A DNA stretch of 63,999 nucleotides, the filler included, from Circinaria calcarea (Eukaryota), in the NCBI GenBank assembly GCA_051942165.1. It is 8 parts of 8 records of this genome, joined end to end, with 100 filler letters (N's around TTAATTAATTAA, not from the genome) between each part and the next. Parts side by side here need not be neighbours in the genome. Positions count along the whole stretch, not along the records: positions 1 to 7,970 come from JAVECS010001202.1; 7 more parts are not named here. The stretch is one strand, 5' to 3'. The position numbers and the translations under genes are program-made. Shown here in pieces: positions 1 to 56,390 of this stretch (positions are counted from its first letter, which is position 1; each line of letters starts with the position of its first letter). A model generated the notes under the pieces. The model saw only the letters and a program-made list of their open reading frames with translations. It made no database searches and was not told the DNA's origin.

Positions 1-1
1 A

Positions 2-760
2 GATCCCGCCAACGATGACACCCCCCGCGCATTCGCCCGCCTCATGGCATTCACCCAGGGCATCAAACCCCGCCCAGGCCTCGACGACGGGATCATAAAG
101 TCCAAGAAGCGAAAGCGACTAGCCGAACCTTCTGAATCCACAGCGCAACCTGCAGACCCTGTCAAAAATCCCAAAATTCCACACATCATGCCCGGTGAGA
201 GGATGTCCGATTTTGCCGCCCGGGTAGACGCCGCATTACCCGTCTCCGGGCTAATTGGAAAAGGTGGAAAAGGACTACCGGGTGTCAAGGCGCCACAGAC
301 GAAGATGGAGAGAAGAATGCAGCGGATGCAGAAGGAGTGGCGGGAGGTCGAAGCGCGGAGGAAGGAGAAACTAGAGGCGGCGATGGAGGAAGCCGAGGAC
401 GAAGACGAAGACCTGAAGATCAGCAGTCGGATACCCAAATCCGTTTCATCCAAAAAGGGTAAAAGGCGAAAAGATAGTGATGACGAAGATCCATGGACCG
501 CAGTAGGGAAACCTCAAAGTGCACAAATTACGTCTGGGGGCTTAGTCGGTCTACACGATGTCGTGCAAGCACCCCCGCAGTTTTCAAAAGTCCCAAAGAA
601 CAAATTTAAGATCCAAAACGGGGCAAAGATCAATGTTCTGGATGTGCCGAGTACGGCGGGGAGTCTGAGGCGGAGGGAGGAGCTAGGCGAGACGAGGAAG
701 AGTGTGGTAGAGGGGTATCGGCAGATGATGAAGGTGAGGAAGGGGAGTGTTGTTGGTTGA
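2..760 (+). CDS. Conserved fungal Lys/Arg-rich coiled-coil protein (CCDC137-like), 5'-truncated at the window edge
   Basis: The frame is open from nt 2 (DPANDDTPRAFARLM...). Motifs DDTPRAFARLM, IMPGERMSDFAARVD and DVVQAPP match a conserved fungal family as I recall it. The ends with SLRRREELGETRKSVVEGYRQMM. Confidence 0.65.
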   Translation, partial: DPANDDTPRAFARLMAFTQGIKPRPGLDDGIIKSKKRKRLAEPSESTAQPADPVKNPKIPHIMPGERMSDFAARVDAALPVSGLIGKGGKGLPGVKAPQTKMERRMQRMQKEWREVEARRKEKLEAAMEEAEDEDEDLKISSRIPKSVSSKKGKRRKDSDDEDPWTAVGKPQSAQITSGGLVGLHDVVQAPPQFSKVPKNKFKIQNGAKINVLDVPSTAGSLRRREELGETRKSVVEGYRQMMKVRKGSVVG

Positions 761-1714
761 GGGTACTTGGACCTATGGAGCCAGGGAAGGAAACTGCAGG
801 GCTGGGATATTCAACGTGAACGATGATGATCCGCATGGTAAAGGTCCCCCTCCCCAACTTTAGTGGCATCCACGGCATGATCTCACTTTTACTCTGAGTA
901 TCCAACACTTGAATCTGGCATTTCGAATGTCTTTGAGCTATGATGTGCAACGTGGTTGAGCCGCGGAACGCCTTATATAGAACAGAACCCACAAATAAAG
1001 TTCCTCTTCCCGCCATTCCCTTCTCTTTCCCCGACCCCCCTCATACTTTCACCATTCTCCTTCTCCTCCATCCACACGTCCTCCCCAGTCTTACCAACCC
1101 TTCCAAGGCCAGCAACTCCCATCCCTAATCCCAATCAACCTTCCCATGGGGGATCCCGTTGTCTGTGTACTTTGGTAGATATTTTATGAAAGGAGTTCAG
1201 TGGAATTGGAGATAATGCATAGTTAATCATTTTTGTGTTCACTTTTGAGCTGTGGAATGGAGAGGAGATTAGGTTGCTGCTGTAGGAAAGAGAGGGGGAA
1301 GAGAAAAGGGAGCAGGGGTGCTGTACGACGGGTGATGTAGGAGTGAAGAATGGGGCAGGGTACGGGGAGAAGGAAGTGGGAGAACCAGAAAGTGTGGCTA
1401 TTACATTGCATATTGGCATAGAGAGGGGGTAAAGGAGAGTCGAGATTGATAAATCAAGTGGGAACTCTGTGATAGCTGGAGTACAGTCATATGTTCAGTT
1501 TTTATTGCGCAAACCAAATTAAAAGAGAAGCGTGGTCTGTAATTCAGATCTCGGTAATACAGGAGGCAAAACTGCTAAGCCTGTCAGACCATCTATTCTA
1601 GCGTGCCAAGTCTCGAACTCTCTTTCAACGACCATCCATCCGTACACGCCTGCTCCAGAAATTGAATCCACAATCCAACATCACCGTTACCATAGCCGGA
1701 GACCTTCTTATATA

Positions 1715-2000
1715 CATAAGGGTTATCTGACAAAGCAAACAATCCGGGGATCTTTATTGCTTGTATCTCTTTTTCTCCGTTCCGGAACCTTCTGCCGGCT
1801 ATCTAGGAATTTTCTCACCAGATATCGCTATTCTTGCATATTTCGCTTTCTTCTCCGCTGCAGTTCTTGTCGCCTCGTCTACGGCCTCTTGTTTCGCCTT
1901 GGATTCCGCCTCTTCGGCTTTCCTCTGCTCCTCGTGACCTGGTCGGCTTACGTCAGCCCCAACACTATCCCCCGGTATATCTCCTTTTGAAAGCTCAGCT
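1715..2000 (-). pseudogene. Array type-A 3' fragment, frameshifted
   Basis: EEQRKAEEAESKAKQEAVDEATRTAAEKKAKYARIAISGEK...IKIPGL aligns with EEQRKAEEAEGKAKQDAADEAIRIAAEKKAEHVKMVMSGEK...IKIPGL. Confidence 0.7.
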
Positions 2001-2649
2001 TTTAAAGCAGGAGGAAAAAGAAAAGCAAATAAAAAGTAAATTGATAGCCTAGTAACCGTCTGCTATTATATATTTATCTGTTTTCTTGTTCTATTTTCAA
2101 CTAAAAATTCCTTTCCATCGCTCGGGTTTGGCGGAGTTCTGCTTATAATCTAGATATACTTCGTTTGGCTAACAGAAGTTCTTTCTTAGTCTTTTCTAGT
2201 TTCTCCACCAATGCCTGGTAATTTTCTGCCATCTCTTTACTGGCCAAGTTGGACGCCTTTCTTAAGTTAACCATGAATTATATCACGGCTACTTGACGTT
2301 CCAAGCTATCTTTCACCACTTTCTGAGCCTCTTTCTCCCCTGGGACTTCCGGGAGCTCACTCCGGAGTAGAAGGATCTAGATATACCCAAAAAAAAATGA
2401 AAGCTTCTAGTTGCAGAAGCGAGTGGAGAGTTCAACAATAGAAGAGGGTGGTTACTTTTGACGCATGCTGGTAAATGCTGCCAAATTCATACCAACGGAA
2501 ACGAAACCTTTAAACGTTCTCTTTCGGTGTCACTTTCCATGGGCGTCCTCCCTTTCGTTTTTTTAAACCGGTGCGCAACAGCAATCTAGTTGCAAAAGGA
2601 GACAAATTTGCTACTCTTTCTTCATCCTGCTCGTTGTCGATCACTGGAT

Positions 2650-3480
2650 GAGCACCGTTGCAAAAGCCAGTTATCTACCCGTCATCAAGCTCATATATAG
2701 GGGGGTTAACACTATTCCAGCTTCCCATCTTTCTTTTCTTCCTTATCTCGTCTGTCATCATCTTGCCTTTGCCTTGAACGCTCCGCTCCCTCTATCTCTT
2801 CTTCCTCCTCGTTATCGTTATCTTCACTTGTTGGACGCGGTGGTTGCGTGAACGGCTGCTTGCCTTTTGCAAGGTCCCGAGCCGTGGGCTTCGGCTTCGT
2901 ATTTTAGGTGGTGGCGGAGGGGGGTTCATCCGGATCCGCGACTGGTATCTGGGCGACTTCCCCTGCGTCGGCATGGGGCCCTTTGCCAAGGACGAATATC
3001 ACACTGTATAAAACTATCATCAGCACTATTCTCTCGTATACATCACACGCATTGTGCGTACTCCTTATACATATACCCTTCTCTTTTGGTCATGTCATGG
3101 TTTGACATGATCACTGCCTCCTACATCAATTTTAACCTCTTCCTAACCCACGCATCCAGTTTTCATCATCAGGGCGTCCCGATCTATAAGGAGCAAGGCC
3201 TTTGTCGCCTTCGACTTGTGAAAGGTTTGGGTGCCTCCTACCCGCTTAGCCGATCTTTCCGTTTTATTCTCCACGTCGTTATTGGTCTGGATTTGGAGAT
3301 TCCAACACGATGGCTTATCCGGAAGGACCTCCGCTGTATGCTAAAGAAAGAATAAGCAGAAAACTAACGGCTAGGGATGTAAGGGACTTACCCTCCGGCT
3401 ATCGACATGATACATCTCCCCCTGCAGCGTAGCAGGCCCCCTTACAAAGCCGTCGAGTCTTATCATATATACAACAACTG
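2650..3480 (-). pseudogene. Array type-A degenerate copy
   Basis: M*EAVIMSNHDMTKREGYMYKE^gtacgc (TAG at 3123-3121, donor at 3061) matches VWEAVAFPHVAAPVPRGYMNNE^gtaagt, with the same phase-2 intron. Boundaries are approximate. Confidence 0.55.
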
Positions 3481-3494
3481 TCTCTGTTTTATCC

Positions 3495-4000
3495 TTAGAA
3501 GAACGATAATCTGAAGAAGCTTCGTTGTTCTTGATGATCGACCCAAGAATATCTAGAGAGCTTTATACCCGTGATATCTATAGACTTTCTCGGACCAGAA
3601 GTTGGATCTGCCAGTAGTTCGCCGTCTTCTTTCGCCGTTCCTTTATCGGCGACCACTGAGAACATTAGCATCCGGAGAACGAGGTTAAAAACCTGGAACG
3701 TACATTTTGTCTTTCGTGAGCACGGTTGCAGCTTCACTGTTCCACGAGGGGCCTCCCTTGGAGCCTGCTCGACTACCTCGTTCTGCGGTTCTATATTGCC
3801 TAGTGAACAAACGTCACGATCCTGTGATGAGGACTGGACAGAACTGTACTGATCGACGGCCTCCAAGCCGACTTTGGTTCTTGCTGTGACGCTCCGAGGT
3901 GTCATCACCTTCATCCATCAGTTGTACAGCCCCTGCTTCGTCGGCATATAGACTTTAGGGTCTTGAACGATGCATCAAGACCCGACATCATAACTTTGTA
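3495..4000 (-). pseudogene. Array type-B copy 2 with an in-frame stop
   Basis: IVQDPKVYMPTKQGLYN*WMKVMTPRSV (TGA at 3920-3918) aligns with IVQDLKVYMPSKQELDDSWMEVITPWSV at about 5790-5710. Confidence 0.6.
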
Positions 4001-4237
4001 AGCTAACGGTATGATCATATAGCTGTGTGGATAGGATTCGTGATGACTCTGCGCCTGGATCTGCAGAATGTAGAAAAAGGGCAAATGTGAATACATATTA
4101 CAAATGCTCTACTTGCTGTTTGTAGGCCCCCAATAACTTCGCGCAAAACGATTAACATCTCATATATAACGAACCCCTGAAGCGAGGAAAGTTTTCAGAG
4201 ATAAATATGTGCTGGTAAGTTATCTTCCGCTTCATCT

Positions 4238-5150
4238 TCAAATCCTTAGGGTGCGCCACCCTATACTCCCAATATGCTTCCGTGTCCGCCACCTTCTCTT
4301 GTCTTCTTCATCCATCTCTAATTGGTAGCCGGTTTTCCTCGGCTTCGAGATCTGGTCTGCGACGTCATCGTCGTCCTTCGTCTGGCCAGAGGCTTCCCCC
4401 CCAGGCTTCTGCCCCGGATCTGCCTTTTTCACCACGGTGCCGCTGAGACAAGAAAAGGGACTGTCAACGTTCGCCAGCTATGAAGTGGGTCTTGCTTGCT
4501 CGGCAAATAGCCACCCAGAAATAGGGCTGCCAACATGCCAGGGCTTGGTGATGTGCACAAACACACCCCGGAGAGCAACCGAGTTCGGTTCATCGATACC
4601 TTGTGGTCGGTATTCGATGAGCAGTGTGCAGAGAGTTGGCGTCGCACTCGAACTCTTCGAGTTCGCCCGCTTGATTTCAAGGTTGGGGTTTTTCGGTTTT
4701 AAGTTAACCTGGACCTGAATGTTCCGAAATGACTTGCCCTGGTGAAGCCTTCAAGAGAGTTATACATACAACTTCTAAGAACAGGCCAAGAACGTGCGGG
4801 ATGCTGACGGCCTCCCATACCTTCCTCGTCACTTGAGCCGAAGAACCATGGAGTGCGAAGCTCGAATTTGAGTTCGCAAAGTGCGGCCGTGAATGCCACC
4901 TTCTGAGGTAAGTGGCACTATACACCCTGCCAAAAGTTTATCATCTGATTATCAGTAAGCTCATATATCTAACGTCTTATTCTTTCATTGCTTAGCCGCC
5001 TTCTTTCTTATTTTAATGCTACTTTGACAGCAATCGCATGTATATTCAACAACCGAAAGCACAGTACTAATACAATAAAGAGGAAGTTTGCTTACCTGTT
5101 TATATCTTGCCATATATGTTTACGTTCTCCTAAGTGTCATCGCTATCACC
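4238..5150 (-). pseudogene. Array type-A degenerate copy
   Basis: HFANSNSSFALH...RKVWEAVSIPHV matches HFANSKPSFAIL...REVWEAVAFPHV of the intact copy. The reading frame is fragmented. Boundaries are approximate. Confidence 0.55.
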
Positions 5151-5409
5151 CGACCTCACAATGATCACGCATGACAGGGGCCTTTAGCTGATAGTTTATC
5201 TCAAAAACAGCTAGCTCATCTAAAGATAGTTATCGCAGCAGATATTTACACACATGGGTATTGTTTCAGACAAAGAAAAGATATGCCAAGAAAAACGTCT
5301 CCCCGTACACACGTATTCCACGCTCACAGTGATTCTCCAAAATTTCAGAATGACAAACTCCGTTGCACGCAAGGTACCCAACCATCATGATATGAGGCGG
5401 ACCCTTTCA

Positions 5410-5885
5410 CGCTGCGTTGTTCTTCTTCTGTATTTTGTCGAAATTCTTCGAATACGCTGCCTTTGTCATCTTCCCGAGTTTCTTGGGCTTTGGTTCCTCG
5501 TCCGAGTCTCTCTCGTGGTTGGCCTTCTTCGTCACCTGCTCCTGTGCCCGTCGTGCCACTTTTTCCCATTCGGCGTATTCCTTTCGGAGGCTTCCACTAC
5601 AGTACTAACGATTGATTAGCATTGGCCAAGGCGAAGTTGCCGTTACGGTGTAAGCAGGGAAGGGCGATATGCGTTTACTCATTGAAACAGGAAACCTTGC
5701 TTCTTGCCCGCCACGCTCCAAGGTGTTATCACCTCCATCCACGAGTCATCTAGCTCCTGCTTCGACGGCATGTAGACTTTTAGGTCTTGGACAATCAAAG
5801 TTGCTACTGTTGGCTCCGAATGCGTGGAGGTTCCTCGCTTCAACCCACTAAGGGCTGCAACAGGACATTGCCAGTTGACTTGCAT
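5410..5885 (-). pseudogene. Array type-B copy 1, apparently frameshifted near the splice donor
   Basis: Reads IVQDLKVYMPSKQELDDSWMEVITPWSVAGKKQGFLFQ*, then a GTAAAC...TAG intron-like segment and a Lys/Glu-rich tail. Paralogous to 3495-4000. Confidence 0.5.
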
Positions 5886-6650
5886 CTGGGTGTTGATCTA
5901 AATCCCCGGTTGACAGGTGGGGTGCTGTCACAAAGGTACGTCAGATCTCGGGGTTAAAATTATAACTGAGATGAGCGGGTGGTTGAGAAACTGAAACTCA
6001 CATTCTGTCGGTCAATCCTTCGATTAACATCATATATATAATGAATGAACGCTTCAGGCGAAGAGAGTTTTTCCAGAGATAAACACATATTATAAGCTAA
6101 AAACCGCAAGTAGGCAAGCGAGTGCCTGCTAGCAGAGGCCATATATCTGTCGAGAAGCCTTTTGGAGTCGAGTGCTCTAGTGTCAAGGTAGCATTGCTGT
6201 TAGTATATTAACAGCCATCACATACTGCAACAGTCTTCAAGTGAGTAAGGGGTCCCCGAAGTTACTTGGCCGTTGCCGATAGTTTCAGCCAACTCCAATA
6301 AATAAAAGCTGAGAATCCAGTAACAGGTTGTTGCAAAATACTGGCACCCGGAATCGCATGTTAGATATAAGCATGTAACCCTTTTTTTTAAAAAAAAAAA
6401 AAAAAAAGAAAAATCCAAAGCATCACCGCATTTTATATATTCCCAATATCTTCACGCATCATCAATTAGGCTTCAGATGAGAATATACGCCGAAGATAAG
6501 CGGCCGTTGGTACAACAGCTATCTCAAGCACGCTAATATGCTGCGAGTGGACATTCTAGATAAAAGAGAGAGGTATATAGAAGAGGAAGTATTTGCCACT
6601 CAATCCCATTATCATATACAGGTAAGCTGTCCAAGAAAGCAAGGGCGTTT

Positions 6651-7660
6651 TTATCCAGTCTGCTCAAGTCCGGGGATCTTTATTGTTTCTTTTCTTTTTT
6701 CCCCATCGCGGAATTTTCTGCCGGCTCCGTAGGAACTTTTTTCCCCAGACATTACCATCTTTACATGTTCCGCCTTCTTTTCCGCCGCGATCCTGATTGC
6801 CTCGTCGGCGGCGTCTTGCTTCGCCTTGCCTTCCGCCTCTTCGGCTTTCCTCTGCTCCTCGCGATCGTAATCTTCAAGGGCGGCCGGTCCCTGCGTGGCC
6901 AAGACTTCCTGCCGGACCGCTTCCTTCTCGGCACGTCTCGTCCGTATTTCCGCCTCTTGTCTTTCCCTTGTGCTCTTTACTTTCTCCCTGGAGGTCATCC
7001 TCCGGACTTTCTGCTTCTTGGCGGCGTCCTCCTTCTGCGCGTTCGTCGACTGTCCCTGTTCGAGCAGGGTGTGGCCATGGGGGCTGCCGCCTCTGACCCA
7101 CGATTCGCTAAATCTGATTTTCAGTGACTGCCCTTCGGGTGCGGTGAACAAAATAGTACCCTACTTACTCGTTGTTCATGTACCCTCTCGGTACAGGTGC
7201 TGCGACGTGGGGGAAGGCGACAGCCTCCCATACCTCTCTCATGAGCTCTGCTCCGGGCTCAGCACCAACTTCTACAAGGAGAATTGCGAAGCTCGGCTTC
7301 GAGTTTGCGAAGTGCCCGCCCTGGCTGCCCGCCTCCTTCCGCTTCCGTTTAGACAAGTGTTGACTCTTCGTCTCCGGATTCAACTGGATCTGAAGATTAT
7401 AACACATAGGCTTCCCCGGCCGCTCGGTGGTTATCTATGCGTGGGACAGGTACCCAGGGGTGATCAGTCCAGGATACAAGGGGGGGGGGAAAGCGACATG
7501 TGTCAATCTGTCCCCCCCGGGCCTTACTTACATTTTGTATATCGATTCGATAATGGTCTCCAGCCGTCACCGAATGATTACCGTTCCAGAAGCCGGTAAT
7601 CTGGTCGTCGGTGAGCTCATGTCGGATGAAGGATTTCAAGGTATTATGTTGCTGAACCAT
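6651..7660 (-). CDS. Orphan protein (type A of the array), 3 exons, about 285 aa, charged coiled-coil C-terminus
   Basis: Exons 7660-7532, 7434-7169 and 7113-6651 join in frame through GTAAGT...TAG and GTAAGT...CAG introns (7531-7435, 7168-7114), merging three separate ORF-track entries. The true start may lie further upstream. Confidence 0.65.
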
Positions 7661-7970
7661 TCGTGGGGCGGAGTGCTGACGTGGTACACTTTTGAACGAT
7701 TAGGTCTGCTTTGGAGGGGTTTGGAGAGGGGGACTATGGTACGCAAGCCGTGTATTGTTCGAGACCGGATGTACTTGAAGGGGACTTTGAAAGGGATAGA
7801 GTGGGTACTGTACTGTTGGTAGGAGGGGGCACTGGATGGTTGGAAGGAGAAATAGAAGAAAAAGTTCTTTTGAATGGTTTCGAAGTGTAAAATGTTAAAA
7901 CTAAAAGGATGTTTTGTTTGGTGGGGATGGGGGTAGGGTGTGGCCCAAATATATAGCCAAAGGATGATGA

Positions 7971-8070
7971 NNNNNNNNNNNNNNNNNNNNNNNNNNNNNN
8001 NNNNNNNNNNNNNNTTAATTAATTAANNNNNNNNNNNNNNNNNNNNNNNNNNNNNNNNNNNNNNNNNNNN
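7971..8070. other. Artificial contig-joining linker (44N-TTAATTAATTAA-44N)
   Basis: Palindromic six-frame stop spacer flanked by N runs. Confidence 0.98.
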
Positions 8071-8905
<835 letters not shown>

Positions 8906-11060: not shown

Positions 11061-13117
11061 TCAATCTTGGTAGCAGAGGTAACTTTGGCGGCGGATAAGC
11101 GCGTAATTCAGTAAGCCTTCAACATTGCGATGTTGTCTCTCTATAGCCAAAGATAGAGGTGTCTCTTTGGCCCTGTTTTCTGTCTCGATTCTGGCTCCGT
11201 GGTCCAACAACACTCGTACCACGCCGATTCTGCCCCGCCGGGCAGCTTTGTGGAGTGCCGTATCCAGATATTGAGTCCGGAGTTCGACGTCCGCCTTCCC
11301 GTCCCTTAATAATGATTGCGCCACTGCCTCATGTCCTTTCTCGGCCGCTATGTGCAGCGGAGTCCAAACAGCATTGCTGAGCCCCGAAGATTCCCGGTAA
11401 CATGCCTTGACATTGGGGCCGGCGCCCATCTTCAGTAAGAACTGTACCAACGTCGAATGGCCACCAAAGGAAGCATGATGCAGTGCAGTCCACGTTGTCT
11501 TATCAGTTGCCTCTATATCTGCCCCCTGCTCTAAGAGTAATCGCACCACCGGTACATGACCTTCCCTGGCTGCCTCGAGCAGCGCTGTCCTTCCAGATTC
11601 GTCGGAGCTTTCAATATCTGCCCCATGGTCCAGGAGCAATCGTACCACCATTTCAAACCCATTTGACGCCGCTGCTTGTAGAACTCTTTTAGATGATGAA
11701 TCTGCAGTGTTCACGTCGGCACCCCATTCTAGCAACAGCTGTACAGCTGCTTCATTCCCTTTGATTACAGCGCTATTAAACGTTTCACTCCTCACGACAG
11801 CACCGCTCCGCAGTAGTAATTCGACCATGGTTATGTGCCCGTGAGCAGCTGCTCTGTAAAGTGGTGTCCTGTGAAAAGAGCTACCTTCCTTGATGTTTGC
11901 CCCTTTCTCCAGGAGCAGCTCCACAACCTCAATGTGCCCCATACTCGCTGCTATACACAGCGGTGAATCTTCACCCCTTCCTCTTTCTATGTTGGCTCCT
12001 ATTCTCAGCAGCTCTTGTACTTTTGGTAGATTCCCATCTCTCGCAGCATCGTACAGGCTATCGTCCAAACCGAAAGCTCGGACAAGTAAGGAAGTCAATC
12101 GCGAGGCACGCTTGGATTTGCCATAGACCTTAGGAGAAACCTTTGGACCTCGGACTGTTTTACTCCGGGTACGTCTGATTGCAATTTTTTCTATTGGTCC
12201 CTCTAAAGTTGTGAATTGCGTAAGTTGCGGATTATGCAGATTTAAAGATCCTGCATCAGAACCAGCCGGTGGATTGAACCCCTCTGCGTTGATTTGGCTA
12301 GCAGACGAAGACCCTAGCTTTTGAATGGCCTGGCCTGATCCATTTCCAACATGATGAGTACTTGAAACGGTATCGGGTTCTGCATCAGGTATTTCTTCGT
12401 CGAAAGCTCCGGTAGCTATGGATTGCTTAAACCACTCAATGATAAAGGTTTTGTTAGCTTCAAACGCGGCCACTGTTACCCCGATATCGTCCAACTCTTT
12501 CCGGATACTACGCCAGATCTCTTTCTCGTCCGTGCTTAATGATTCCACTGTCTGATTACTAATAACCGAGCCTTCATGTTTCCCATCTCGGAATTCTTGC
12601 AAGAACTTGTTGAGGGTTCTTTCAACCGTAAGCTGAGATGTGCTAATGTATCTATGGTTAGCTCATGCACGACTAAGATACTCATTTAGTAATACCAGGA
12701 ACCCGTAAGGAATACATTGACACCCTGCCTGATAAAAGCCGTAAGCAAAACTGTATTCGATGTTAATCGGGACCGCAGTTCCGCAATGTTCTGCAGCCCC
12801 CATCCCAGCTGATCCCATGCTCGTTTGCTTTTAGTATCAAGACTCTCGTACTTTTTGATAAGATCTTGTAGATCTTCCAGAATACCTTCATAGCCGTCCT
12901 TCAGCGTTGAAAGCCGTGCGGACTGCGCAGCGGATATACTTCCATCATCTCCATCAGACAATATCTCTCCGACTTCCTTAAGAACCGCGTGCAAAGACAA
13001 GACCTCGAGGAAGATGTTGCTGAAGCTCCCCGGTGCGTCCTTGCATGATCGGTAGACGTTCCACGCGAGGTGTCCAACGGTGATGAAGTCGCCTATGGAA
13101 TAGCCCAAACTAACCAT
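11061..13117 (-). CDS. Fungal HeLo-like/SesA-type N-terminal domain plus ankyrin-repeat protein (no NACHT)
   Basis: The N-terminus GYSIGDFITVGHLAWNVYRSCKDAPGSF...EVLSLHAVL is typical of the fungal STAND N-terminal domain. A WRSIRKELDDIG helical block is followed by about 9-10 ankyrin repeats. Predicted intron 12728-12643. Confidence 0.85.
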
Positions 13118-16040: not shown

Positions 16041-16140
16041 NNNNNNNNNNNNNNNNNNNNNNNNNNNNNNNNNNNNNNNNNNNNTTAATTAATTAANNNN
16101 NNNNNNNNNNNNNNNNNNNNNNNNNNNNNNNNNNNNNNNN
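16041..16140. other. Artificial contig-joining linker
   Basis: Same 100-nt spacer. Confidence 0.98.
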
Positions 16141-16142
16141 AT

Positions 16143-19100
16143 TCCCCTTTTCTTTGCGGCTTAGGTCTTGCCGGCTCAGGTCCAGATACTTACATTGCTA
16201 AAATCTGTATGACATATCTGAATTTCGATGATTTCCAGGAAGGTCCCTGTGGTTCCTGGCAGGTACTAGCGGAGCGGAAAGGCATGTATCCTTTTTACGA
16301 CTACGCCTCGCGTAACTGGCACACTCACATCAAGAGCCAAGACGATATCAAAAAGGGTTTCCAGGTGCTTAGACATCTAATCGAGCCTCGATCTCCCAAA
16401 TTGTTGTCCTGGGGGGAGGCAGCCGGGATTAAAGACATACATGCAGCGAACAACGCCATTGACCTCGCAAATAAGGCTAGTATAGTATGGCTTGCTGGAA
16501 TCGACTTGGGAAACACTCTATTCACGAGAGAGCAAGTGGAGGCGGCCTCTGGAAACCTAAGAAATGGTTACGAACAAATAGAGACGGTTCTTCAAGCAGG
16601 CACCGCAGCTATCACCAATGGGGCTAAAGAAGCAATAGCGAGAATTGGTAGTGAAAAGCTCGTCAAGCTCTTGCTCGAAAGTTATCCCGACACCCTGATC
16701 ACAAAGTCGATGCTTTTTGCAGCCGCAGCGAATCAAAAGAATGGCCGCGATGTTATGAAATTACTACTTTCCGCATGTGATTACGACTGCAGCGAAGCCA
16801 TAACAGACCTGGTCATAGAGGCTGTGAAGAATCCTGTCAGCGGCAAGGAGATCCTAGGACTATTGTTGAACGTGGAGAAGTTTAATATCACAGAACGTGC
16901 GGTTGTCGAAATTATACGACACTTCAAGCGAGACGATATAGAATCACTGCTGGGTGAAAGAGATGATGTTCATATCACAGAGGATATATTTACGGAGATA
17001 ATACAACGATTTGAGCCCAATGATATAAGAGCCCTGCTAAATGATTGGGATAGTATCAAGATCACGGAAGGCATGATTATAGAAACAATACAGCTGTTTG
17101 AGCTCAAGAAAATTGAAGCGGTCCTAGGTGAATGGGATGATGTCAAGATCACAGAGGCAGTAGTAGCCGCCGCGACAGTTCAGATGCCCATCGGCGTGAA
17201 GGTTATAAAACAAGTACTGAGCAAAGATAACCTGGAAATTACCCCCAGCGCCATGGTGGCAATTGCTAGTACGTTTGAAGTGGAACTAGTCGAGTTGCTG
17301 TTAGGCAGACATGATACCCAAATCAGTGATGAGGTGGTAATAGAATGTGCAAGAAGATTCGATGCTAAGATTGTAGAGTTATCGATGGAAAGGAGAATGA
17401 ACATGCGGATTACAGAAGCAGTAGTGGAAGCAGCGGTCTGCAACCTGGGATACGCTAAGGAAGTGCTAGACTTACTCCTAATTAGAAGCGACATCCAGAT
17501 CACAGAATCATTACTAAAGACGGCAGCAGGTCGCGACGAGGAGGTAATGGCATGTCTTTTAAGCAGAGCAGAGGTCAAAATCACTGAGGCAGTGTTGGAA
17601 GTAGCCGCGAGAAACGAAGAACATGGCGGGGAGTTGATGGAGTTGCTGCTAAACAGAAGCAATGTGCCAATTACAGAATCGACAATAAAGGCGGCGGCAG
17701 GCAATGAAAGGTCCGGCATGGAGGTTTTATGCACGATCTTAGGAATCCGGGGTGTGATAGACGTTCATATCACAAGTGTGGTATTGGAAACAGCGGCTGG
17801 AAATAAAAATCGAGGTGATGAAATGATGCAGTTATTGCTAGGCAAAGATGATTCGCAAATTACAGACATGGTTTTGGCAGCAGCGTATTCTAACAAGCTA
17901 AGGGGAATCTACGTCATCGAGACGTTGCTAGAAAAATGTGGCATCTATCTCCTTGAACGGATAGACAAGTGGGTAAATAAGCAGCCCAAGCTGGTGAAAA
18001 AAGAGGCAAGCAAGGCGCTCGAGCAGGTAATGATAATTGCAGCATCCAAAGGGCATGAAGACACCGTAAAGATGCTGTTAGAGAACGGTGCTGATGTTCA
18101 AGCGGAGCTGGCAGGTTCTCATATGACTGCGCTTCACTGTGCCGCAAAAGAAGGCCATGAGAGAGTAGTGAGGCTCCTAATAGAAAGACGTGCTGATGTT
18201 CAAGCGAGGGAGTTATCCTCTCGCAAGACTGCGCTGCACTTGGCCGCTGCAAGGGGCCATGGACCAGTGGTAGACCTGCTACTGTTCAGTGGAGCCGATA
18301 TCCGAGTGGAGGAGGCAGAGTCTCGCAAGACAGCACTGCACTTTGCCGCAGAAGAAGGCCATAAGGATGTGGTGGAGCTGCTGCTGAAAAATGGCGCTGA
18401 CTTCCAGGCAAAGGATAAAGACCAAAAGACGGCGTTAGATTGGGCATTTACAAACTATCAACTAGTGGTGATGGAAGTTTTATTGGCGCAAAAAGCAAAG
18501 GAATATCTTGGACGACTTACATTGCCCGAAATACCCACCTCAGACTTAGGGCTAAATAGCCTAATGCAGCTCATGGTACATAAGAGACACGCTATTGTGG
18601 CAACCAGAAAAGAAGCGCCCATATTACATATGGTAGCTTGCTCCGGTAACAAGGGGACGACGCTTCAACTACTGCACGAAAAGTTTGATCTCAACGCAAT
18701 TGATGACTTCGGGACGCCGCTGCATTGGGCGGCCCGTGCCGGAGCCGAGAGTGTCGTTCGGCTCTTGCTAGATATGGGTGCTAATATCCACGCAAACGGT
18801 AGATTTGGGACGGCCCTACACTGGGCAGCTCAAATGGGTCATCAATTTGTGGTGCAGCTTTTGCTGAAGAAAGGGGCTGACGTTGCAGCTGTGAATTTCT
18901 CGAAAGAGACCGCTCTGCACTTAGCGGCGTGGAACGGGCATGAAGCTGTTGTACGGGTGCTTGCGGAGAGTGGTGCTGATATTTCAGCAACGTCCTCTCA
19001 CGGAAACACAGCACTGGATCTCGCAAGAAAACGACCACAACGGATCGATATCGATACATCAGCTGTGGAACTGATGTTGTACAATATGCTCCCCTCCCAA

Positions 19101-19187
19101 AACCTTCGCAGAGCCCACCCAGAGGCTAGAGACTTTCATAAGCTCTCGATTAAGCAGACCAAGCCTCCGTTAGTGCAGGATTGTTAG
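16143..19187 (+). CDS. C-terminal part of an NLR-like (probably NACHT) protein: post-NOD helical region, ITExxxxAAAxN repeats and ankyrin repeats; 5'-truncated
   Basis: The frame is open to the contig start. YIAKICMTYL...YPFYDYASRNWHTH is the usual post-NACHT signature. There are more than 10 ITEAVxxAAAGN-type helical repeats (DUF7104-like, from memory), then two ankyrin blocks. Confidence 0.85.
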   Translation, partial: SPFLCGLGLAGSGPDTYIAKICMTYLNFDDFQEGPCGSWQVLAERKGMYPFYDYASRNWHTHIKSQDDIKKGFQVLRHLIEPRSPKLLSWGEAAGIKDIHAANNAIDLANKASIVWLAGIDLGNTLFTREQVEAASGNLRNGYEQIETVLQAGTAAITNGAKEAIARIGSEKLVKLLLESYPDTLITKSMLFAAAANQKNGRDVMKLLLSACDYDCSEAITDLVIEAVKNPVSGKEILGLLLNVEKFNITERAVVEIIRHFKRDDIESLLGERDDVHITEDIFTEIIQRFEPNDIRALLNDWDSIKITEGMIIETIQLFELKKIEAVLGEWDDVKITEAVVAAATVQMPIGVKVIKQVLSKDNLEITPSAMVAIASTFEVELVELLLGRHDTQISDEVVIECARRFDAKIVELSMERRMNMRITEAVVEAAVCNLGYAKEVLDLLLIRSDIQITESLLKTAAGRDEEVMACLLSRAEVKITEAVLEVAARNEEHGGELMELLLNRSNVPITESTIKAAAGNERSGMEVLCTILGIRGVIDVHITSVVLETAAGNKNRGDEMMQLLLGKDDSQITDMVLAAAYSNKLRGIYVIETLLEKCGIYLLERIDKWVNKQPKLVKKEASKALEQVMIIAASKGHEDTVKMLLENGADVQAELAGSHMTALHCAAKEGHERVVRLLIERRADVQARELSSRKTALHLAAARGHGPVVDLLLFSGADIRVEEAESRKTALHFAAEEGHKDVVELLLKNGADFQAKDKDQKTALDWAFTNYQLVVMEVLLAQKAKEYLGRLTLPEIPTSDLGLNSLMQLMVHKRHAIVATRKEAPILHMVACSGNKGTTLQLLHEKFDLNAIDDFGTPLHWAARAGAESVVRLLLDMGANIHANGRFGTALHWAAQMGHQFVVQLLLKKGADVAAVNFSKETALHLAAWNGHEAVVRVLAESGADISATSSHGNTALDLARKRPQRIDIDTSAVELMLYNMLPSQNLRRAHPEARDFHKLSIKQTKPPLVQDC

Positions 19188-24103: not shown

Positions 24104-24203
24104 NNNNNNNNNNNNNNNNNNNNNNNNNNNNNNNNNNNNNNNNNNNNTTAATTAATTAANNNNNNNNNNNNNNNNNNNNNNNNNNNNNNNNNNNNNNNNN
24201 NNN
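24104..24203. other. Artificial contig-joining linker
   Basis: Same 100-nt spacer. Confidence 0.98.
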
Positions 24204-32160: not shown

Positions 32161-32260
32161 NNNNNNNNNNNNNNNNNNNNNNNNNNNNNNNNNNNNNNNN
32201 NNNNTTAATTAATTAANNNNNNNNNNNNNNNNNNNNNNNNNNNNNNNNNNNNNNNNNNNN
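32161..32260. other. Artificial contig-joining linker
   Basis: Same 100-nt spacer. Confidence 0.98.
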
Positions 32261-40204: not shown

Positions 40205-40304
40205 NNNNNNNNNNNNNNNNNNNNNNNNNNNNNNNNNNNNNNNNNNNNTTAATTAATTAANNNNNNNNNNNNNNNNNNNNNNNNNNNNNNNNNNNNNNNN
40301 NNNN
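40205..40304. other. Artificial contig-joining linker
   Basis: Same 100-nt spacer. Confidence 0.98.
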
Positions 40305-48248: not shown

Positions 48249-48348
48249 NNNNNNNNNNNNNNNNNNNNNNNNNNNNNNNNNNNNNNNNNNNNTTAATTAA
48301 TTAANNNNNNNNNNNNNNNNNNNNNNNNNNNNNNNNNNNNNNNNNNNN
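48249..48348. other. Artificial contig-joining linker
   Basis: Same 100-nt spacer. Confidence 0.98.
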
Positions 48349-56290: not shown

Positions 56291-56390
56291 NNNNNNNNNN
56301 NNNNNNNNNNNNNNNNNNNNNNNNNNNNNNNNNNTTAATTAATTAANNNNNNNNNNNNNNNNNNNNNNNNNNNNNNNNNNNNNNNNNNNN
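56291..56390. other. Artificial contig-joining linker
   Basis: Same 100-nt spacer. Confidence 0.98.

Follow-up and report, generated by a model that had tools for sequence, protein, structure and literature searches.

A probable birth-and-death cluster of one undescribed protein family in the lichen-forming fungus Circinaria calcarea

Introduction

Multigene families that follow Nei's birth-and-death model consist of tandem paralogues on the same strand with interspersed pseudogenes, and purifying selection acts on their coding sequences. Tandem turnover with many pseudogenes is also shared by two families of fungal meiotic drivers. The wtf genes of Schizosaccharomyces pombe encode multi-pass membrane proteins, and a single gene gives rise to two isoforms, poison and antidote, from overlapping transcripts. 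The Spok genes of Podospora and relatives encode proteins of several hundred residues with nuclease-like and kinase-like domains. Here, we describe an array of diverged gene copies, named gene A, gene B and their derivatives, in a 63,999-nt stretch of DNA (hereafter the window) from Circinaria calcarea, a lichen-forming ascomycete of the order Pertusariales (Lecanoromycetes, Ostropomycetidae). An original prediction for this locus had proposed an orphan module of two different genes that was repeatedly duplicated and inactivated, in the manner of genetic-conflict loci. It recognised the structure correctly but read too much into it by proposing a two-gene conflict module: the array is probably a tandem cluster in decay, formed by one protein family under ordinary birth-and-death turnover, rather than two different genes that make up a module.

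The window was assembled from eight separate contigs joined by N linkers, longest first, with lengths from 7970 down to about 7600 bp. The locus lies wholly within the first piece (1-7970), which is one complete contig of the C. calcarea metagenome-assembled genome (MAG). Like other birth-and-death families, the array retains one near-intact copy (gene A), and a fully intact paralogue (P0002) remains as well. Unlike them, the family is undescribed, and its known members come solely from genomes of lichen fungi and from metagenome contigs.

Results

About seven diverged units of a three-exon gene

Significant same-strand self-similarity is limited to positions 1705-7660 of the window. Comparison of positions 1001-8000 with the whole window by blastn (expect value, E, of at most 1e-3) yielded three non-self pairs, all on the same strand and inside 1-7970: 6669-6864 with 1743-1937 (78% identity over 196 nt, E 4e-39), 5694-5795 with 3871-3971 (78% over 102 nt, E 7e-17) and 6021-6083 with 4149-4205 (76% over 63 nt). 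With each unit as query, nhmmer matched gene A to 4755-4902 (E 1.7e-8), aligned its positions 6809-7480 in collinear order to 2756-3367 (E 6.6e-7) and matched 7564-7624 to 2638-2698 (E 1.3e-3). Comparisons of open reading frames (ORFs) by blastp, as well as tblastn with the protein of gene A (P0001), were consistent with these self-matches. No array copy was found on the other seven contigs of the window by ORF blastp, by nhmmer or with a family profile built from outside homologues alone. Duplication, divergence and inactivation of tandem copies, as originally predicted, are thus supported by self-blastn, nhmmer and tblastn as well as by the outside-only profile and the substitution ratios given below.

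The matches describe about seven diverged units or fragments of one three-exon gene, which follow one another head to tail on the minus strand between about 7660 and 1705 (Table 1). In minus-strand order these are gene A, a spacer, gene B, an A-type fragment fused to a third-type core (4481-4750), B', A'' and a further A-type unit (2697-1705). The alternation of A and B types that had been proposed holds roughly, but the array contains the third-type core and the order is not strict. The paralogues differ in age, ranging from 78% DNA identity down to similarity at the protein level only.

Furthermore, the minus strand of the contig has seven copies of the heptamer TATATGA (6618, 6036, 4967, 4166, 4021, 3469 and 2697), and the plus strand has none. 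Elsewhere, eight occurrences were counted in 55,929 bp on both strands together, from which we calculate an expectation of about 0.6. The heptamer marks the 5' part of the units, and gene A has CGACATGA at the homologous place. Since this place is coding in gene A and terminal repeats are absent, the heptamer is a conserved piece of the unit, and its interpretation as a transposon end or target site was ruled out.

Table 1. Coordinates of the array units and their parts within the window, with the evidence for each.
Feature	Position	Strand	Evidence or remark
Unit 1, gene A	6651-7660	-	Q9187_005286, P0001; tblastn 100% identity over three exons
Gene A, exon 1	7532-7660	-	
Gene A, intron 1	7435-7531	-	NCBI model 7390-7531
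Gene A, exon 2	7169-7434	-	
Gene A, intron 2	7108-7168	-	Phase 2, GTAAGT
Gene A, exon 3	6654-7107	-	
Gene A, stop	6651-6653	-	
G4A6 homopolymer, +1 frameshift site in gene A	6737-6746	-	Comparison with P0002, P0003 and unit 7
Spacer	6037-6650	-	Opens with unit-start element (TATATGA at 6618), then about 580 bp, GC 0.41
Unit 2, gene B	5407-6142	-	Outside-only profile E 2.2e-17, best match in the window
Gene B, candidate shortened exon 1	6002-6142	-	By eye only
Gene B, intron 1	5898-6001	-	
Gene B, core exon	5682-5897	-	Ends in TGA 5679-5681
Gene B, tail ORF	5410-5604	-	
Unit 3, A-type fragment	4791-4967	-	nhmmer E 1.7e-8; tblastn E 0.027 and 6e-6; N-terminal profile E 0.042
Unit 4, third-type core	4238-4750	-	Outside-only profile E 2.2e-10
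Unit 5, B'	3495-4166	-	blastn 78% over 102 nt; nhmmer E 1.6e-13; repeat families D2, D9, D13, D14
Unit 6, A''	2712-3469	-	Outside-only profile E 1.1e-10; nhmmer collinear with gene A, E 6.6e-7
Unit 7, A-type pseudogene, array end	1705-2697	-	nhmmer tail E 1.7e-26 / 3.5e-28, exon 1 E 1.3e-3; tblastn

Genes A and B as subtypes of one family

A core profile made from the window ORFs and P0002 was searched against 1.84 billion cluster representatives, 12 of which matched at E of at most 1e-3 and three at E of at most 1e-10. Among the matches is P0004, which is the database model of gene B. Another, P0014, is the hypothetical protein MMC19_006578 of Ptychographa xylographoides, a species of a different order within the same subclass (Ostropomycetidae), so the label of orphan genes does not hold. 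P0007 and P0008 stem from ENA records, and searches for homologues by word index yielded only three, two and three rows. So far as named records show, the family appears to be restricted to lichen-forming Lecanoromycetes. The portions of the literature on the Circinaria calcarea genome, on Ptychographa xylographoides and on lichen metagenome MAGs that were at hand contain nothing on the family, no search aimed at its motifs having been made.

The relation between genes A and B was addressed with a profile of ten outside homologues that contained no window rows. Searched against 2,447 ORFs of the window, it matched four, namely 5682-5897 of gene B (E 2.2e-17), 7168-7434 of gene A (E 1.3e-16), 3146-3340 of A'' (E 1.1e-10) and 4481-4750 (E 2.2e-10). 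The next-best match was the exon-1 ORF of gene A itself (E 0.36), and all remaining ORFs had E above 3. As a profile of outside homologues alone matches both, genes A and B are subtypes of one family, with 4481-4750 as a third subtype; the array holds at least three diverged subtypes. The original prediction was right in regarding A and B as ancient paralogues with a shared core motif that ends at the same splice position, where the same phase-2 intron is found in both. Its two-gene module dissolves into one family with a third subtype and without strict alternation.

Several outside ORFs end in ..KE at the place where a GA/GTAAGT donor would read GAG TAA. Because they stop exactly there, the position of the phase-2 intron is conserved across the family. 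Several of the proteins P0005-P0008, P0010 and P0013 are prokaryote-style ORF calls on eukaryotic contigs, which read through intron 1 or end at the GTAAGT of intron 2; since such calls ignore introns 1 and 2, the lengths and termini of these database proteins are artefacts.

A tree was computed from 15 rows and 89 columns, with P0001, P0003, P0004 and the A-type fragment of unit 3 left out. Gene A and P0002 form a supported pair (97/97), and gene B groups with P0005 (82/75) and not with gene A; otherwise the tree is unresolved.

Purifying selection and decay of the copies

The ratio of non-synonymous to synonymous substitution rates (dN/dS) between array copies lies between 0.16 and 0.25. For gene A and the tail of unit 7, a ratio of 0.16 was obtained over 41 codons (13 synonymous differences on 24.8 sites, 13 non-synonymous differences on 98.2 sites; binomial p 7e-4). 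The values for gene A and unit 3 (31 codons, dN/dS 0.18, p 3e-3) and for genes B and B' (26 codons, dN/dS 0.25, p 0.04) are similarly below one. Since this synonymous excess occurs in sequences that were found at the DNA level, several copies would once have been working genes, and the copies appear to have encoded a constrained protein for much of their history.

In their present state, units 2-7 carry lesions comprising stops, frameshifts, deletions and one fusion. Repeat-induced point mutation (RIP) usually marks fungal repeats. The thresholds for its indices are a TpA/ApT ratio of more than about 0.89 and a (CpA+TpG)/(ApC+GpT) ratio of less than about 1.03, both of which have to be passed. 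The contig shows values of 0.82 and 1.16, like the other seven contigs. No segment of the array passes both thresholds; the single segment that does (7661-7970; 1.12 and 0.95) lies upstream of gene A and outside the array. RIP was thus rejected as the inactivating mechanism on the basis of its indices. The content of guanine and cytosine (GC) is 0.55 in the intact gene and 0.40-0.51 in the decayed units and spacers.

The ancestral unit may be pictured as a three-exon gene. Its exon 1 would end in ..RIDxQ at a phase-0 intron, and its exon 2 would form the core, with NLQIQVN, a basic loop, KPTVATLLVE, W..V..P and G.L..E in this order, up to the phase-2 intron at GA/GTAAGT. Exon 3 would complete the fold, some members adding a long helical tail rich in K, E, R and A. 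From such a gene the units could have arisen by repeated unequal crossing-over. Several copies would then have been kept for long under purifying selection, as the dN/dS values suggest, before they were lost singly through point stops, 1-nt insertions or deletions, internal deletions and one fusion of neighbours, presumably not through RIP. Given the synonymous excess and the negative RIP indices, crossing-over, retention and piecemeal loss make the simplest account.

Gene A and its paralogue P0002

Gene A is the only copy on the contig with a complete reading frame. It corresponds to the NCBI protein P0001 (268 aa, Q9187_005286), is predicted to be open after splicing and has introns with GTAAGT donors. 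Profiles of the N-terminal part and of the tail match it with E 1e-22 and 5e-68, respectively. For intron 1, two acceptors come into question. The alignment to the outside-only profile begins, with high posterior, at the very first residue of the ORF 7168-7434, and an acceptor at 7434 adds 15 residues to give a protein of 283 aa. The NCBI acceptor at 7389 lies 45 nt downstream and removes 15 conserved residues including the start of the NLQIQ motif. In the outside homologue P0008, a near-identical stretch stands ahead of its NLQMQVN motif. Because outside homologues conserve the added segment, the acceptor at 7434 seems better supported than that at 7389. The upstream acceptor had been anticipated in the original prediction, the length of 285 aa given there being slightly too large.

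Compared with P0002, P0003 and unit 7, gene A has a +1 frameshift that begins at the G4A6 run and affects about its last 30 residues. Its ancestral C-terminus can still be read in another frame (6683-6751), and a tail profile from P0002 and P0003 matches this out-of-frame ORF with E 2.5e-8. Frame 0 of the gene A tail reads the C-terminus of P0002, and unit 7 keeps the P0002 frame. The description of gene A as intact after splicing is accordingly correct for its open frame over three exons, but not for its C-terminus.

P0002 is encoded on another contig of the same MAG and is 92% identical to residues 1-125 of gene A and 91% identical over the tail. As this intact paralogue sits at a second locus, the notion of one surviving copy holds for the present contig only, and the survivor named there is itself frameshifted.

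Gene B and the spacer

In gene B, one extra T ahead of the conserved GA/GT donor creates the TGA at 5679-5681, as read from the sequence. This is a single lesion; the core is intact, and the tail ORF is open and in the ancestral phase. The N-terminal profile gave no match to the exon 1 region of gene B (5963-6199). The 116-aa P0004 agrees in every residue with a gene model of B in which 5885-5733 is joined to 5604-5410, with the start methionine at 5885. This model evades the TGA by means of a GTGATA donor, splicing ..WME to the tail ORF, and thereby removes the conserved W..V..P..G.L end of the core. P0004 is probably the rescue of a pseudogene by the gene caller.

The spacer between genes A and B showed no family similarity and no profile match. 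A homopolymer tract of about 22 T followed by eight A is located in it at 6380-6415 (minus strand).

Units 3 to 7

Unit 3 comprises an exon-1 motif (4924-4965) followed by a stop, and a core fragment (4791-4883) with a 6-codon deletion, and it is fused to unit 4. The latter has a core ORF (4481-4750) without an exon 1 of its own, an intron-2 donor changed from GT to GC (sequence read) and an in-phase tail ORF (4241-4477). Of the copy A' that had been placed at about 5150-4238, the A-type part was recovered in unit 3 and a further part proved to be the third-type core.

In unit 5, a start element (4149-4205) that resembles 6021-6083 is followed by a B-type core remnant (3867-3972) with an in-frame TGA, and a mosaic with an exon-1-like donor patch (3698-3716) lies downstream. 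Unit 6 has an exon 1 (3392-3466) followed by GTAAGT, a core remnant (3146-3340) truncated after the central strand, and an acidic/basic tail ORF (2715-2903); its blastp match shows 40% identity over 53 aa.

Exon 1 of unit 7 (2638-2697) carries a change from CAG to TAG, and none of 500 shuffles reached its Smith-Waterman score. The middle of this unit is decayed beyond recognition, and the tail with its 3' flank (1705-1939) contains an in-frame TAG. The tail profile matches unit 7 with E 4.8e-17, and the A tail expected near 2000-1715 was thus found, by nhmmer and by this profile, at 1705-1939. A remnant of gene B at 2480-2600, which was said to resemble 3670-3750, shrank to a 26-nt patch whose score was reached by two of 500 shuffles; the A-type exon 1 of unit 7 directly precedes it on the minus strand.

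Predicted fold and candidate function

No Pfam domain was detected in 12 exon-ORF queries, in 13 family proteins (gathering score) or at threshold in 112 ORFs of the contig, in agreement with the original statement that no known domain is recognisable. Sub-threshold hits to MMR1, TAF4 and Med21 are located in the charged tails and were discounted as effects of composition. A protein atlas searched with P0001 and P0009 gave no usable match.

Structures were predicted with AlphaFold2 (AF2). For P0001, modelled from an alignment of eight rows, the predicted local distance difference test score (pLDDT) is below 50 in the N-terminal 125 residues, and for this reason the model was not used for fold searches. 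Its tail (139-236) forms a long helix with a pLDDT of about 90, in which K, R, E, D, A and Q make up 72 of 100 residues. In the case of P0009 (146 aa), the family alignment of 15 rows led to a model with a pLDDT of 82.5 and a predicted template modelling (TM) score of 0.79. The model opens with two short helices and three strands; a disordered basic loop then leads to the fourth strand, after which come a helix and a pair of short strands.

In Foldseek searches with the P0009 model, the weak PDB neighbours have E of 0.15-1.5, probabilities of at most 0.38 and TM scores by query of at most 0.31. Recurring among them are PUR-alpha (PURA and Borrelia Pur-alpha), the Whirly protein WHY2, a PC4 homologue and SSB chains. 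The chains of the PC4 homologue reach TM scores of 0.50-0.59 by target and 0.29-0.31 by query, which are non-significant. Proteins of these classes are binders of single-stranded nucleic acids that combine a beta-sheet with a helix. The P0009 model is like the PC4/PUR-alpha/Whirly class in its succession of three strands, basic loop, fourth strand and helix. It is unlike the class in having two additional helices at the N-terminus and two additional strands at the C-terminus, and with no significant match and no sequence similarity this is a resemblance and not a membership.

With regard to membrane association, no coding window of 19 residues reaches a Kyte-Doolittle mean of 1.6, the maximum being 1.0-1.1 in P0001, P0002 and P0009; the sole window that attains this value is located in P0008, within the read-through intron. 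On account of the predicted fold with its weak neighbours, the KRKRK-type basic loop and the charged helical tail, we tentatively suggest that the protein might be soluble and intracellular, probably nuclear, and might act as a small nucleic-acid- or chromatin-binding protein, a guess in which we place little confidence. Negative searches weaken this guess: the family profile found no match among PDB sequences at E of at most 10, and the P0009 model found none in PDB and BFVD by Foldseek at E of at most 1e-3.

Discussion

The results are best read as a decaying tandem cluster of one family, and several points have to be set against this reading. The segments used for dN/dS are short (26-41 codons) and were picked because they are still alignable, so that dN is biased downward. 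Just one of the 12 inner branches of the tree is well supported; hence neither the relative age of the subtypes nor the species relation of gene B and P0005 is fixed. The transcription and splicing of genes A and B are predictions, and the frameshift in gene A could be an assembly error. Finally, the contig ends 310 bp upstream of gene A, so the array may continue beyond this end and include other intact copies.

It is improbable that the units are the cargo or the remnants of a transposon, such as a Helitron-type capture or a non-autonomous element. A copy with 92% identity on another contig would suit a mobile origin, and so would the short length of the contig (7,970 bp) and its two broken ends, possibly a sign that the assembly stopped at repeats. 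The same could be said of a sharply conserved heptamer at the unit starts, but this heptamer is homologous to coding sequence of gene A. None of the 112 ORFs of the contig (at least 40 aa, both strands, 1-7970) matches Pfam at E of at most 1e-3, hence there is no transposase, reverse transcriptase, integrase, gag protein or helicase among them, and no match to a conserved housekeeping family was found either. All 15 inverted pairs are at most 27 nt long with 78-93% complementarity, and none of them flanks a unit. The units are not retrocopies, as they retain introns; moreover, purifying selection acted on the encoded protein and RIP is absent. The negative tests for transposon domains, terminal repeats and related features make this explanation weak.

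Still less probable is a genetic-conflict locus, i.e. a spore killer or other meiotic driver or an allorecognition system, in which long A-type and short B-type proteins would act as poison and antidote and the turnover would reflect an arms race. Apart from the pseudogene-rich tandem turnover, a second locus in the genome (P0002), a narrow taxonomic spread and the lack of a known domain are features that the array has in common with drivers. Gene B, which keeps an intact core and loses its tail through a single lesion, makes a short isoform conceivable. However, tandem arrays with pseudogenes are common in ordinary lineage-specific families, the measurable dN/dS values of 0.16-0.25 are not above one, and A and B are of one family and not a toxin and an antitoxin of different kinds. 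Kinase, nuclease, HET, NACHT and other Pfam domains were absent from all 12 exon-ORF queries, 13 family proteins and 112 contig ORFs, and there is no transmembrane segment.

The comparison with individual systems leads to the same result. Like wtf, the array family is lineage-restricted, has many pseudogenised copies and lacks a recognisable enzymatic domain; unlike wtf, it has no transmembrane-like coding segment, and it shows no similarity to wtf in sequence or fold. With Spok it shares the fungal origin, the lineage restriction, several copies per genome and a coiled-coil-like segment. In contrast to Spok, the protein of gene A has 268-283 aa, and no Pfam domain was found in any of the 13 family proteins at gathering score. 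The domains of fungal allorecognition (het) genes (HET, NACHT/NB-ARC and prion-forming) have no Pfam match in A, B or the 112 contig ORFs. A selfish system specific to lichen fungi, for instance a spore killer in which full-length, tailed paralogues and core-only ones without a tail, such as gene B after its single lesion, are antagonistic and the dead copies are the trace of repeated sweeps and suppressions, would be a highly speculative extension that we regard as very improbable. Altogether, the reading as a conflict locus has no positive evidence.

That the array is not a gene family, but non-coding repeated DNA or a mis-assembly of the MAG over-read by gene callers, is the least credible explanation of all: gene A alone has a full ORF, the splicing of A and B rests on gene models, and the NCBI models of both use a splice site disfavoured by family comparison, but this view is largely refuted by the outside-only profile, which recognises four cores at E of at most 2.2e-10, by intron positions and phases that are conserved across species, by the excess of synonymous differences and by the confident AF2 fold (pLDDT 82.5) that the family alignment yields.

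If the reading as a birth-and-death cluster is true, the locus offers a small and clear-cut case of how a gene family grows and decays in a lichen-forming fungus; very few genes of such fungi have been studied. It would also introduce a protein family that is undescribed and whose fold is predicted with confidence and has no significant counterpart among the structures solved so far. For genome annotation, it is of value that the NCBI models of genes A and B appear to splice away conserved residues and that family members on lichen metagenome contigs are cut short at the intron by prokaryote-style calls. Much greater weight would be attached to the family only if a function in drive, incompatibility or symbiosis were shown, and nothing in our data indicates one.

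Genomic setting

Upstream and downstream of the array, C/T-rich low-complexity stretches without family similarity occur at 1000-1500 and 7700-7970 (minus strand), which may be promoter or intergenic sequence. Positions 2-757 (plus strand) hold a K/R/E-rich open frame of 252 aa. It is the 3' part of a gene whose remainder lies beyond the contig start, and it is convergent with the array end; no Pfam family matches it at threshold, Med21 (E 0.004) being a sub-threshold hit. A search of the whole window against Rfam gave no match.

The linkers have the form N44-TTAATTAATTAA-N44 and are located at 7971-8070, 16041-16140, 24104-24203, 32161-32260, 40205-40304, 48249-48348 and 56291-56390. As they join separate contigs, features separated by a linker are not physically adjacent, and the neighbouring gene that had been assigned to 8100-8900 lies on a different contig, beyond the linker at 7971-8070. 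The other seven pieces harbor ordinary fungal genes, among them those for GST, ankyrin-repeat proteins, PB1, CBS, carboxylesterase, Nuf2, PPR, a sugar transporter, VHS/GAT and a NUDIX-type isomerase, none of which are neighbours of the array. Two large ankyrin-repeat proteins, unrelated to the array, are encoded at 11064-12662 (minus strand) and 16143-19184 (plus strand). In the second of these, DUF7104 repeats precede the ankyrin array, an architecture that recalls fungal NLR-like proteins.

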